A DNA stretch of 64,000 nt from Escherichia coli (GTDB lineage Bacteria > Pseudomonadota > Gammaproteobacteria > Enterobacterales > Enterobacteriaceae), in the NCBI RefSeq assembly GCF_044324875.1, contig NZ_CP172185.1; one strand, given 5' to 3'. The position numbers and the translations under genes were made by a program. Positions 17,118-18,167 of this stretch are shown here, piece after piece; the stretch's first letter is position 1; each line of letters opens with the position of its first letter. The notes under the pieces are model-generated. The model ran no database searches, was not told the DNA's origin, and worked only from the letters and a program-made list of their open reading frames with translations.

Positions 17118-17548
17118 TTTTATTCCTACGGGTCTTATTCTGACAATATATCCTGTGTTCCAGACTGCCACATCACCACATCCTGTGCCATTATCTGACT
17201 CACATTACATACATCGCATCAGGATACAGTAGTAGCACTTTCTGTAATACAGCTTCCGGTTTCTTCCACCATCGCACCGGACAGGCGACTATGAGGGATA
17301 AACCCGCGAATCATTAACGCGGTAAAAACCCGGTGTACATCGTTTTTGATTATTCCCGCACACTCGCGCAGAAGGAGTTCCCCGTCGGGCTACGGTTTCT
17401 GTTCATACGGGAATACGGCGACTATATAGCGAATGATGTGTCAGGCTTGAATACCTTTATCCGTTAAAAGGGATATCAATTAAGTTATCCCGTACAGGGT
17501 ATAAGCCATTATCAAAGCCACTCTGTAGCGAATGGCTTTTGTAATGGA

Positions 17549-17998
17549 CTATTTAATTAGTGATGCTGCGTATTCGATTAGATATAACTTAGGTGCCAGC
17601 CAGATTTTTAACCATGTCATATTGGTTACTGCACAAATAATAAAAATCCCCCACATAGTCAAAACTCCAACCAATGGCACGATAAGAAGATTAATATCAC
17701 CTTTGCTATCCCAAACCATTGTCGGCCTGTATTTGGGATTTCCCTTCTCCCATGAATATCCTTCATCACCGATTTTACCTGTCTCAACTCTTTGGCACTG
17801 CTTCTTCATAAACCAGAAAACCAGAGGGATTGTTGAAATGGCTATTAATGTTTTAATCAGGCTATCAACCATATTCCATACCAGCAACTGATGAACAACA
17901 TCCGGAATCTGAGCCTGACTGAATGCAATGGCGGAATCAATTCCATCGCTGGCCTTCTTCAATAAATCAACAAGAATTTTATTTGCTTCTTCTTGCAT
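17549..17998 (-). CDS. Hypothetical membrane protein (two predicted TM helices) in an AT-rich insert
   Basis: ORF 17549..18178, probable start at internal ATG (MQEEANKILVDLLKK...); hydrophobic segments LIKTLIAISTIPLVFWFM and LIVPLVGVLTMWGIFIICAV. Confidence 0.45.
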   Translation of the reverse strand: MQEEANKILVDLLKKASDGIDSAIAFSQAQIPDVVHQLLVWNMVDSLIKTLIAISTIPLVFWFMKKQCQRVETGKIGDEGYSWEKGNPKYRPTMVWDSKGDINLLIVPLVGVLTMWGIFIICAVTNMTWLKIWLAPKLYLIEYAASLIK

Positions 17999-18068
17999 GT
18001 TTATATCCTGTAAGTTGTAAACCGGTTCGAACAAATAAGTTACCAAGAGAGACAAAGATACCGAGCAA

Positions 18069-18167
18069 CCACGGTCGCACACGATGTTTATCGCAGTAAC
18101 CAGAACTGTCTGTGATTGTACCTGCGCATCCACGCTTACGGCAGGCACGTGGGATTCGTGATGGCAT
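18069..18167 (-). pseudogene. HNH endonuclease N-terminal remnant (about 33 codons), truncated at the AT-rich insert
   Basis: ORF 17979..18167 begins MPSRIPRACRKRGCAGTITDSSGYCDKHRVRPW (CxxC...CxxH zinc-finger N-terminus typical of phage HNH endonucleases), then loses protein-like character. Confidence 0.4.

Follow-up and report, generated by a model that had tools for sequence, protein, structure and literature searches.

The window (the whole 64-kb stretch of Escherichia coli DNA that was analysed) carries on its minus strand two small phage genes, the beginning of an HNH endonuclease gene, a recombination junction, a centromere-type inverted repeat, a membrane-protein gene with its leader, a conserved non-coding segment, and lambda-type cos and terminase genes. 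The two small genes (66 aa, PHROG 10235, and 85 aa; 18175..18629) form the same pair that precedes an intact HNH gene in related prophages. They are followed by the HNH stub (18081..18167), which has its native RBS, an ATG at 18167, and codons 1 to 29. With the intact 116-aa HNH protein of a related prophage as tblastn query, residues 1 to 34 matched 18167..18066 (85% identity, E = 6e-16), and there was no second match in the 64 kb, residues beyond 34 being absent. We give the retained part as the first 29 to 34 codons of this 116-aa packaging-type endonuclease. At the DNA level, the stub is 95 to 97% identical to intact HNH genes in hundreds of E. coli prophages. An earlier note on this DNA had stated that the 62-aa minus-strand ORF at 17979..18167 opens with an HNH N-terminus, and these matches bear it out; the note had also named a chance match as a possible source of the likeness, which is ruled out by the tblastn E value and the DNA identity to HNH prophages.

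The same note spoke of an HNH-type zinc finger, which needs a small correction. The stub contains the accessory N-terminal zinc ribbon, of the form CxxxxC...CxxH (C9, C14, C25, and H28), and not the catalytic HNH motif. In the intact relative, the catalytic domain (beta-beta-alpha-metal, Pfam PF01844) comprises residues 66 to 112, all of which are lost from the stub, and a Pfam search of the remnant ORF gave no match. Enzymes of this kind, with an N-terminal zinc ribbon and a gene adjoining cos and terminase genes, have been described (Xu and Gupta, PMC3592412, on zinc-ribbon HNH nicking enzymes). In 15 near-identical genomes, RefSeq/PGAP already annotates the 102-nt stub as an HNH pseudogene, labeled “HNH endonuclease” or “DUF8602 domain-containing protein” and “incomplete; missing C-terminus.”

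Pairwise local alignments put the breakpoint within the microhomology CGTG(G)CGA, at 18080 (±3). The junction (18075..18083) reads CGTGTGCGA in the window, and the microhomology is 7 to 8 nt long. The HNH type of parent has CGTG-GCGA here and the N15/lambda type has (GAG)CGTGCGA; the TG added at the joint in the window is absent from both parent types. DNA identity to the intact HNH genes of two relatives, L003 and L004, is 95 to 97% and stops at 18080 to 18075. GC content falls from 0.517 in the stub to 0.427 in 17999..18080 and 0.387 in the membrane gene, compared to 0.513 for the whole window. The earlier note had reported this drop, which is real, but had put the break at about 18065; the alignment to prophages with an intact HNH gene that it proposed as a check moves the boundary to 18080 (±3).

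The right-hand DNA starts exactly at the first base of a decayed N15-type SopB centromere inverted repeat (18063..18080), which has the form GTGCGACC-GT-GGTTGCTC and is written out as GTGCGACCGTGGTTGCTC. The N15 centromere sites, IR1 to IR4, were reportedly described by Ravin and Lane in 1999. Here, we took the IR1 to IR4 sequences and their consensus from Table 4 of PMC7205306. The window repeat agrees with the consensus GTGCGACC-NN-GGTCGCAC at 16 of 18 positions, with both mismatches in the right arm, and is the sole such site in the window, where 0.1 would be expected by chance. Exact consensus repeats occupy the same place in four relatives (L002, L006, L007, and L057) and are identical to N15 IR1/IR4 on the other strand. 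By position, the window repeat corresponds to IR4, which is located between genes 58 and 59 of N15. The N15 GenBank record labels the centromere repeat as a terminator; the hairpin of the window repeat is weak (z = -0.35). A tblastn search with N15 SopA, SopB, and TelN found no match in the window at E <= 1e-3, and a related prophage (strain 135) that is collinear with the window is chromosomally integrated. Judged by its sequence, the repeat appears to be an orphan centromere relic in an integrated prophage.

Between the repeat and the membrane gene lies the leader of the latter (17999..18062), with the RBS AGGA at 18006..18009. A TGTC point in this leader (18051..18054) is the site at which relatives carry an extra gene of 286 aa; searches of Pfam, NCBIfam, and PADLOC with this partner protein returned no family. 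Across many contigs, the repeat lies upstream of one of two genes, the 286-aa gene at a distance of 41 nt or the membrane gene at 82 nt. On the other side of the membrane gene, conserved non-coding DNA that we call segment X (17255..17547) forms the right boundary of the cassette. It opens with a strong hairpin just past the membrane-gene stop codon (17506..17547, -23.5 kcal/mol, z = -5.6, no T-run), is matched by about 2,600 records of E. coli, and flanks the cassette as direct repeats of 172 to 305 bp in L002, L006, and L007. An Rfam scan of 15 to 19 kb found no RNA family. Farther along lies a lambda-type cosN (16013..16024, GGGCGTCGACCT), with one mismatch to lambda and lambda-like cos flanks, followed by the lambda-type terminase genes Nu1 and gpA (13391..15800). 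Nu1 occupies 15291..15800; the mechanical ORF of gpA starts at 15376, and its true start is likely the ATG at 15319. TerS and TerL of the P27/HK97 type are absent from the 64-kb window.

The two arms that meet at the junction have different parentage. The left arm (19672..~18080) is 95% identical to L003; in both L003 and L004, an intact 116-aa HNH gene is followed by genes for P27-family TerS, TerL, and HK97-type portal, protease, and capsid. The right arm (18080..17255) is 88 to 90% identical to PhiR46_1, an N15-like linear phage-plasmid that carries telL/telR, ParA/ParB, and lambda-like Nu1/A. It also matches IMG/VR locus L057, which has an intact inverted repeat, 82 nt, and the membrane gene, and whose left neighbour is a DUF4406 gene, not HNH. 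Among 120 IMG/VR stretches that bear the repeat, a full HNH gene was found only with an HK97-type TerL (16 stretches) and never with Nu1/gpA (37 stretches). A second, independent scar is present in L031, where HNH residues 1 to 50 are fused to segment X, an inverted repeat, and a lambda-type cos.

The membrane gene (17549..17998, PHROG 3054) encodes 149 aa plus a stop codon, not the 150 aa of the earlier note. The two hydrophobic segments that the note predicted are there: a weaker one centred on residues 52 to 55 and a strong one at residues 109 to 121 (Kyte-Doolittle 19-residue mean up to 2.6). An AlphaFold model built from a 96-sequence alignment (pLDDT 80.6) agrees with both segments; a model built at first from only 21 close sequences was of low quality (pLDDT 67). 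By the positive-inside rule, the predicted topology is N-out, loop-in, C-out. The gene has a GC content of 0.387 and a GC3 of 0.39, compared to 0.513 for the window and 0.52 for the neighbouring late genes. Family members keep this length of 149 aa in about 490 clusters at 90% identity and about 2,455 at 50%, and the N- and C-terminal helices, which are amphipathic, are highly conserved.

This unnamed family spans temperate lambdoid, P22-like, and N15-like phages and virulent N4-like and phi92-like phages. In temperate phages, it occupies at least three different slots. Over the ORF only, DNA identity is 83 to 90% to genes just past N or ral in the pL operons of HF4s, Oslo, Sf6 (gp34), and E. 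coli O55:H7, and in a P22-like contig, gp4 and gp10 flank a further relative. The N4-like copies are found beside early/middle genes; for distant family members, the contigs were mostly too short to inform on context. In many phages, the gene sits in classic conflict-gene slots. The presence of the family in virulent phages fits roles in conflict and other roles equally well.

Searches of Pfam, NCBIfam, and PADLOC with the membrane protein returned no family, and a Pfam search with the 96 aligned family members returned none at E <= 0.001. A sequence-profile search of the PDB gave no match, Foldseek against BFVD and the PDB retrieved only uncharacterised family members or noise, and hhalign indicated no relationship to P22 SieA (probability 0.1%) or SieB (0.3%). 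In the literature searched, no functional study of Sf6 gp34 or of another member of the family turned up. In a sigma-70 consensus scan, we found no promoter upstream of the membrane gene, and counts were no higher than in shuffled sequence. Because no sigma-70-like promoter was found there, the gene would not count as a moron in the strict sense, which requires a transcription unit of its own; it is probably transcribed within the Q-dependent late operon. We regard it as an apparently moron-like, gene-sized accessory cassette that moves between unrelated slots.

Tentatively, we suggest for the membrane protein a possible role at the cell envelope, in conflict between phages or between phage and host, for which it would use its conserved terminal helices; blocking the genome entry of superinfecting phages would be one guess at how. 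We consider it unlikely that the protein is instead a lysis-timing factor (a holin, antiholin, or similar) functionally tied to the lysis cassette. Here and in N15-like phages, the gene does lie downstream of lysozyme and Rz in the late operon, the protein is small with two TM segments, and family members also occur in virulent phages. However, the family is mostly found far from lysis genes (in pL operons past N/ral, among P22-like structural genes, and beside N4-like early/middle genes), the prophage and its relatives have holin genes of their own (the candidate here is at 20290..20562), and the conserved ends are amphipathic helices rather than the charged C-terminal tail typical of holins.

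The 62-aa ORF that begins with the HNH stub starts MPSRIPRACRKRGCAGTITDSSGYCDKHR and is a mechanical product of reading the stub through the junction into the non-coding leader. Its final 33 residues are an out-of-context translation of the centromere repeat and the untranslated leader, and it terminates 20 nt within the membrane gene. We think it very unlikely that in this ORF the HNH N-terminus has been neofunctionalised into a zinc-ribbon protein that functions by itself, perhaps by binding DNA or with its translation coupled to that of the membrane gene, which the ORF overlaps. Stand-alone zinc-ribbon proteins adjoining phage HNH genes are on record (PMC3592412), and the native RBS and start codon of the ORF are retained along with its four zinc ligands, and it overlaps the membrane gene by 20 nt. 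Set against this, besides the read-through origin of the last 33 residues, the ORF has no Pfam match, PGAP classes the stub as a pseudogene, and the independent stub in L031 ends at a different codon and is joined to different DNA. Nor is there a sign of purifying selection among the 15 genomes that carry the joint, which are 99.8 to 100% identical; because of this near identity, the intact start codon and zinc ligands are uninformative on selection either way. The HNH stub appears to be a non-functional fossil.

The stub is very probably the scar of a module exchange in an integrated lambdoid prophage of E. coli, with the mosaic joint falling in the late operon. Of the two arms, the left one (lysozyme, Rz/Rz1, the 85-aa gene, the 66-aa gene, and the HNH start) derives from an HNH-bearing phage lineage in which the HNH protein would serve an HK97/phiP27-type terminase as cofactor in cos cleavage. 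The right one, which runs from the centromere repeat through the membrane gene, segment X, a TonB-like lipoprotein gene, the lambda-type cos, Nu1, and gpA to lambda-type head and tail genes, derives from lambda/N15-type phages. A single illegitimate crossover at CGTG(G)CGA would have placed the first base of the N15-type inverted repeat next to HNH codon 29-30, with loss of both the catalytic half of HNH and its terminase. In HK97, gp74 promotes the cleavage of cos, lambda is without such a protein, and lambda-type terminases function without an HNH partner (PMC9410871); for packaging HNH endonucleases of the gp74 type, that paper cites Kala et al. (2014, PNAS). Since the lambda-type terminase needs no HNH protein to cut cos, the stub would be tolerated, and the HNH gene would have been made redundant rather than “destroyed,” as the earlier note had put it.

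The anatomy of the locus, the parentage of its two arms, the breakpoint, the missing catalytic domain, and the mobility and conservation of the membrane gene are shown by the data; we infer the direction and the number of recombination events and the expression of the membrane gene. The exchange may instead have had a two-step history, with recombination downstream of HNH and then a deletion. Very improbable is the account of the earlier note, in which an AT-rich cargo element inserted into a functional cos-proximal HNH gene and split it: composition and homology do change abruptly inside the ORF and the neighbouring membrane gene is mobile, but the 64 kb contain neither a 3' HNH fragment nor the cognate P27/HK97 terminase, the DNA past the cassette is lambda/N15-type through cos, Nu1, and gpA, and L057 shows the identical right-hand arrangement with a DUF4406 gene on the left. 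An insertion would leave the 3' part of HNH and its partner terminase beyond the insert, and neither is present, which argues for replacement. In this replacement, two phage types would have recombined, and a breakpoint would lie inside HNH. Other parts of the earlier account stand, namely the truncation of the HNH gene by AT-rich DNA that bears a mobile accessory gene for a membrane protein (the “cargo”); the intact short protein that the note said might be found here in related phages is present in none of the relatives.

The module exchange is ordinary phage mosaicism and not a new system. It offers a clean, base-resolved example of a packaging-module swap in lambdoid phages, in which loss of the HNH cofactor coincides exactly with replacement of an HK97-type by a lambda-type terminase, and it supports a strict functional coupling of HNH with HK97-type terminases. 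The independent stub in L031 indicates that the swap recurs, and the exchange described here accounts for a recurrent “HNH endonuclease, incomplete” pseudogene in E. coli genomes. The analysis also identified an orphan N15 centromere repeat. The main target for follow-up is the 149-aa membrane protein, whose family is very widespread, strongly conserved, and without database description. A bolder combination of ideas, which we hold to be doubtful, is that a large, unnamed family of inner-membrane proteins of phages has this protein as its founding member and a new function in envelope exclusion or host takeover, and that dispersed SopB repeats are recombination hot spots that shuttle accessory genes. 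If the hot-spot idea were true, the shuttling would take place between linear phage-plasmids and integrated prophages, and it would explain both the HNH breakpoint at the first base of the repeat and the 41/82-nt spacing of the repeat.

Several features of the locus resemble known systems. The moron concept is said to come from Juhala and Hendrix. Lambdoid morons (lambda bor/lom and HK97 gp15; reviewed in PMC3594210) are, like the membrane gene, gene-sized, AT-rich, and present or absent between collinear genomes. The membrane gene likewise occurs in a number of unrelated slots and has a small envelope protein as its product, and lambda bor occupies the same Rz-to-cos slot as the membrane gene does here. 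Morons differ in that the membrane gene is without a recognisable promoter of its own and its family is also found in strictly virulent phages; bor, lom, SieA, and SieB have no sequence or profile similarity to the membrane protein. Class II holins are small two-TM proteins with a charged C-terminal tail, encoded with the endolysin; the membrane protein has two TM segments but is 149 aa long with a conserved amphipathic C terminus, and its gene is usually apart from lysis genes.

Compared to HNH proteins of the HK97 gp74 type, the stub is 85% identical over the first 29 to 34 residues, including the zinc ribbon, and shares the upstream neighbourhood; in contrast to them, it has no catalytic domain and no HK97/P27-type terminase, and it lies 2 kb from a lambda-type cos. 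The N15 sites IR1 to IR4 have the consensus arms that the 18-nt window element resembles, and IR4 is in the same slot, between post-lysis accessory genes and cos, whereas one arm of the window copy carries two substitutions, and SopA, SopB, and protelomerase are missing from its surroundings. Finally, the “boundary sequences” of lambdoid and P22-like mosaics are short conserved non-coding elements at module joints, as are the inverted repeat and segment X here, and in Sf6 the homologous membrane gene is also flanked by an annotated boundary sequence (bsq4, beside gene 34; NC_005344). Unlike at those sites, the crossover in the window falls inside a coding sequence, at a microhomology of 7 to 8 nt, and has left a stub rather than a clean joint at a gene boundary.

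Between 21 and 13 kb, the minus strand of the window carries the late genes of a lambdoid E. coli prophage. From two adjacent tRNA genes (20978..21131; tRNA-Arg(tct) and tRNA-Met(cat) according to ARAGORN) it runs through a holin-like ORF (20290..20562), a lysozyme gene (19099..19632), Rz/Rz1 (18635..19117 and 18697..18882), an 85-aa ORF (18372..18629), a 66-aa ORF (18175..18375), an ORF starting at ATG 18167, a 149-aa ORF (17549..17998), and a gene for a lipoprotein with a TonB C-terminal domain (16791..17117). These are followed by a lambda-type cosN (16013..16024, GGGCGTCGACCT, one mismatch compared to lambda) with lambda-like flanks (GTTACGGGGCGTCGACCTCGCGCGTTTTCGCTATTTATGAAAATTTTCCGG), then by lambda-type Nu1 (15291..15800) and gpA (13391..15376), all on the minus strand. 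E. coli strain 135 carries an integrated prophage that is collinear with window 1-37662 (96-99.8% identity) and whose lambda-type head and tail genes are complete, W and B through D and E to H and J.

Several other features were seen in the prophage. In a near-identical prophage, PGAP names the second tRNA tRNA-Ile. A 125-aa plus-strand ORF (19756..20133), antisense to the late operon, occupies an AT-rich patch (GC 0.35-0.44) that separates the holin-like ORF from the lysozyme gene; the strain 135 RefSeq annotation has a partial pseudogene at this place. Rfam matches were isrK (32704..32780), C4 antisense RNA (32805..32892), and the ALIL pseudoknot (36272..36388); the last falls in a 1.3-kb segment (35937..37246) that is not in the strain 135 prophage and is probably an IS3-family insertion.

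The ORF starting at 18167 begins as an HNH endonuclease gene. In a tblastn search, the intact 116-aa HNH protein of the related prophage L003 matched window 18167..18066 over residues 1-34 (85% identity, E = 6e-16), and 160 phage records with annotated HNH or homing endonucleases match the first 33 residues of this stub, which at the DNA level shares 95-97% identity with E. coli prophages that carry HNH. Residues 1-29, kept in the stub, form an accessory zinc ribbon (C9-x4-C14 and C25-x2-H28); the catalytic domain, PF01844, is residues 66-112 of the intact protein. Xu and Gupta describe this zinc-ribbon motif class in phage HNH enzymes encoded beside cos and terminase genes (PMC3592412). A Pfam search with the mechanically called 62-aa ORF gave no match, and its last 33 residues are read-through of non-coding DNA. 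In near-identical prophages, PGAP calls the same 102 nt "HNH endonuclease" or "DUF8602 domain-containing protein," "incomplete; missing C-terminus," and the whole arrangement is found in 15 complete genomes. GC content is 0.517 in the stub (0.513 in the window), 0.427 in the next 82 nt, and 0.387 in the 149-aa gene, whose product has two hydrophobic segments. The truncated HNH gene, the abrupt AT-rich step, and the two-TM membrane protein described in the earlier note are thus all borne out; the stub itself is confirmed as an observation and is already annotated as a pseudogene in RefSeq.

The earlier note explained the truncation as a cargo insertion that destroyed the HNH gene. It was right about the truncation and about a cargo gene; the event itself was no insertion, since no part of HNH past residue 34 turned up by tblastn in any of the 64 kb. 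A simple insertion is rejected also on the terminase genes, as neither a P27-family TerS nor an HK97-type TerL was found by tblastn in the 64 kb. The related prophages L003 and L004 share the left flank (L003 at 95% identity to window 19672..~18080) and continue through an intact HNH gene to P27-family TerS, TerL, and HK97-type portal, protease, and capsid genes; aligned with them, as the earlier note had suggested, the window loses HNH-side identity at about 18080. Because the window lacks the HNH 3' half and the HK97-type terminase that these intact relatives have, it combines two phage types: its lysis and accessory end is that of an HNH/HK97-type phage, and its packaging and structural genes are those of a lambda-type phage. 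The stub is the scar left by this exchange, and the joint is a mosaic one of the textbook kind. In HK97, the HNH protein gp74 promotes cos cleavage; lambda has no counterpart (PMC9410871, citing Kala et al. 2014). Among the 120 IMG/VR matches listed for an N15-type SopB centromere repeat, a full HNH occurs only alongside HK97-type TerL (16 stretches) and never with Nu1/gpA, which are present in 37.

Local alignments resolve the joint. Identity to the HNH parents extends through ...GATAAACATCGTG, and identity to the other parent type begins at GTGCGACCGTGG, window 18080, with an extra TG in the window at the joint. Both parent types share CGTG(G)CGA here, so the crossover ran through 7-8 nt of microhomology, as illegitimate recombination. 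Three groups represent the right-hand parent type: PhiR46_1, an N15-like linear phage-plasmid with telL/telR, ParA/ParB, and lambda-like Nu1/A (90% identity to window 18080..18051 and 18054..17255); the chromosomal lambda-type prophages L006 and L007; and the IMG/VR locus L057. The best right-arm match is L057 (88.6% identity to window 18084..17566), with a DUF4406 gene, an intact 18-nt repeat, 82 nt, and the membrane gene. Since L057 already has exactly the right-hand arrangement of the window, a single crossover would be enough to make the joint.

The right arm starts with GTGCGACC-GT-GGTTGCTC (window 18080..18063). At the equivalent position, L002, L006, L007, and L057 carry GTGCGACCGTGGTCGCAC, the reverse complement of IR1 and IR4 (GTGCGACCACGGTCGCAC), centromere sites of the linear plasmid prophage N15 that SopB binds (PMC7205306, Table 4). 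IR4 of N15 (45561-45578), between genes 58 and 59, occupies the same slot, from the post-lysis accessory genes to cos, and the N15 GenBank record labels this stem-loop a "putative rho-independent terminator." No other such site lies in the window. The window copy differs by two substitutions, both in one arm, and no longer forms a notable hairpin (z = -0.35); the search of the window found no SopA, SopB, or protelomerase near it. We interpret this copy as a decaying orphan relic. The base-level breakpoint and its coincidence with the N15 centromere repeat are new here. An exact-match IMG/VR scan for GTGCGACC-NN-GGTCGCAC returned at least 120 stretches (L022-L141). Among the matches listed, many contigs have several copies, often 2-6, pairs exactly 220 nt apart recur, and in about 13 loci the repeat begins 41 nt upstream of a 286-aa gene; the copies in L002 are at 2813-2830 and 3033-3050.

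This 286-aa gene (PHROG 2571) is extra in PhiR46_1, L006, and L007; there it falls between the points equivalent to window 18051 and 18054, with a 4-nt TGTC repeat as its boundary. The window itself lacks it at 18051..18054. The corresponding stretch of L002 is 3063-4000. Its product had no Pfam, NCBIfam, or PADLOC match. The 85-aa ORF of the window shares 46% identity with residues 101-169 of this protein, which makes it a single-domain relative or else a fragment. In L002, L006, and L007, the two-gene cassette is flanked by direct repeats (172-305 bp, 90-94% identity) of segment X, a conserved non-coding stretch (window 17255..17547) matched by ~2,600 E. coli records. Segment X opens with a highly stable hairpin (17506..17547; -23.5 kcal/mol, z = -5.6) after the stop codon of the membrane gene; one phage record annotates the segment as a terminator, yet it has no T-run.

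The gene at 16791..17117, which PhiR46_1 lacks, lies between segment X and the cos site. Its lipoprotein-like product has a signal peptide ending in LAVGC and a TonB C-terminal domain (TIGR01352, E = 7.5e-13), and may interfere with TonB-dependent uptake. The PHROG 1267 label for this family, "Rz-like spanin," looks mislabelled.

A second scar was found in L031 (IMGVR_UViG_2778261458_000009, 1-420). The HNH allele there is another one (60% identical); it breaks off after residue 50, where the end of segment X is fused to it, and an intact repeat and a lambda-type cos come next. This independent scar is also new. It shows that this module exchange yields HNH stubs beside lambda-type cos repeatedly.

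The membrane protein is the sole part of the locus worth experiment. In the predicted structure, a long helix at the N-terminus continues into TM1 (residues 2-68); then come a short loop containing beta strands, TM2 (106-125), and an amphipathic helix at the C-terminus. The central 39-residue loop has 8 K/R, with KKQCQR directly after TM1; this charge distribution suggests an N-out, loop-in, C-out topology. The breadth of its unnamed family is new here: PHROG 3054, of unknown function in PHROG, includes it, 490 clusters at 90% identity are nearly all exactly 149 aa and every one "hypothetical," and a profile search reached 2,455 clusters at 50% identity. Almost no variation is seen in the first 41 residues or in the C-terminal WLKIWLAPKLYLIEYAASL segment; the TM helices do vary. 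Of 5,426 complete E. coli genomes, 135 carry the gene.

Two DNA forms exist. Copies in the Rz-to-cos slot also share a 57-nt leader; those in other slots are similar over the ORF alone (17998..17561, 83-90% identity) and lie directly after N or ral in the pL operon of P22-like HF4s, Oslo, Sf6, and E. coli O55:H7. The Sf6 copy is gene 34, beside an annotated "boundary sequence." A 40%-identical member lies in a P22-like structural operon between gp4 (P22_Tail-4) and gp10 (Phage_stabilise) in L013 (Logan SRR28201056 contig, 4001-4453), and more distant relatives (28-35% identity) were found in N4-like and phi92-like virulent phages and in many Vibrio phages. The gene behaves as a moron, with the caveat that a scan of the sequence upstream of it detected no promoter of its own. 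Pfam, NCBIfam, PADLOC, PDB, BFVD, and comparison with SieA and SieB were all negative for function by homology. The main alternative for its role is lysis timing. We tentatively favor an envelope-level exclusion or conflict factor, on the basis of the conflict or envelope genes in the slots it uses: these also house ral, sieB, and gene 17 in P22 and bor in lambda.
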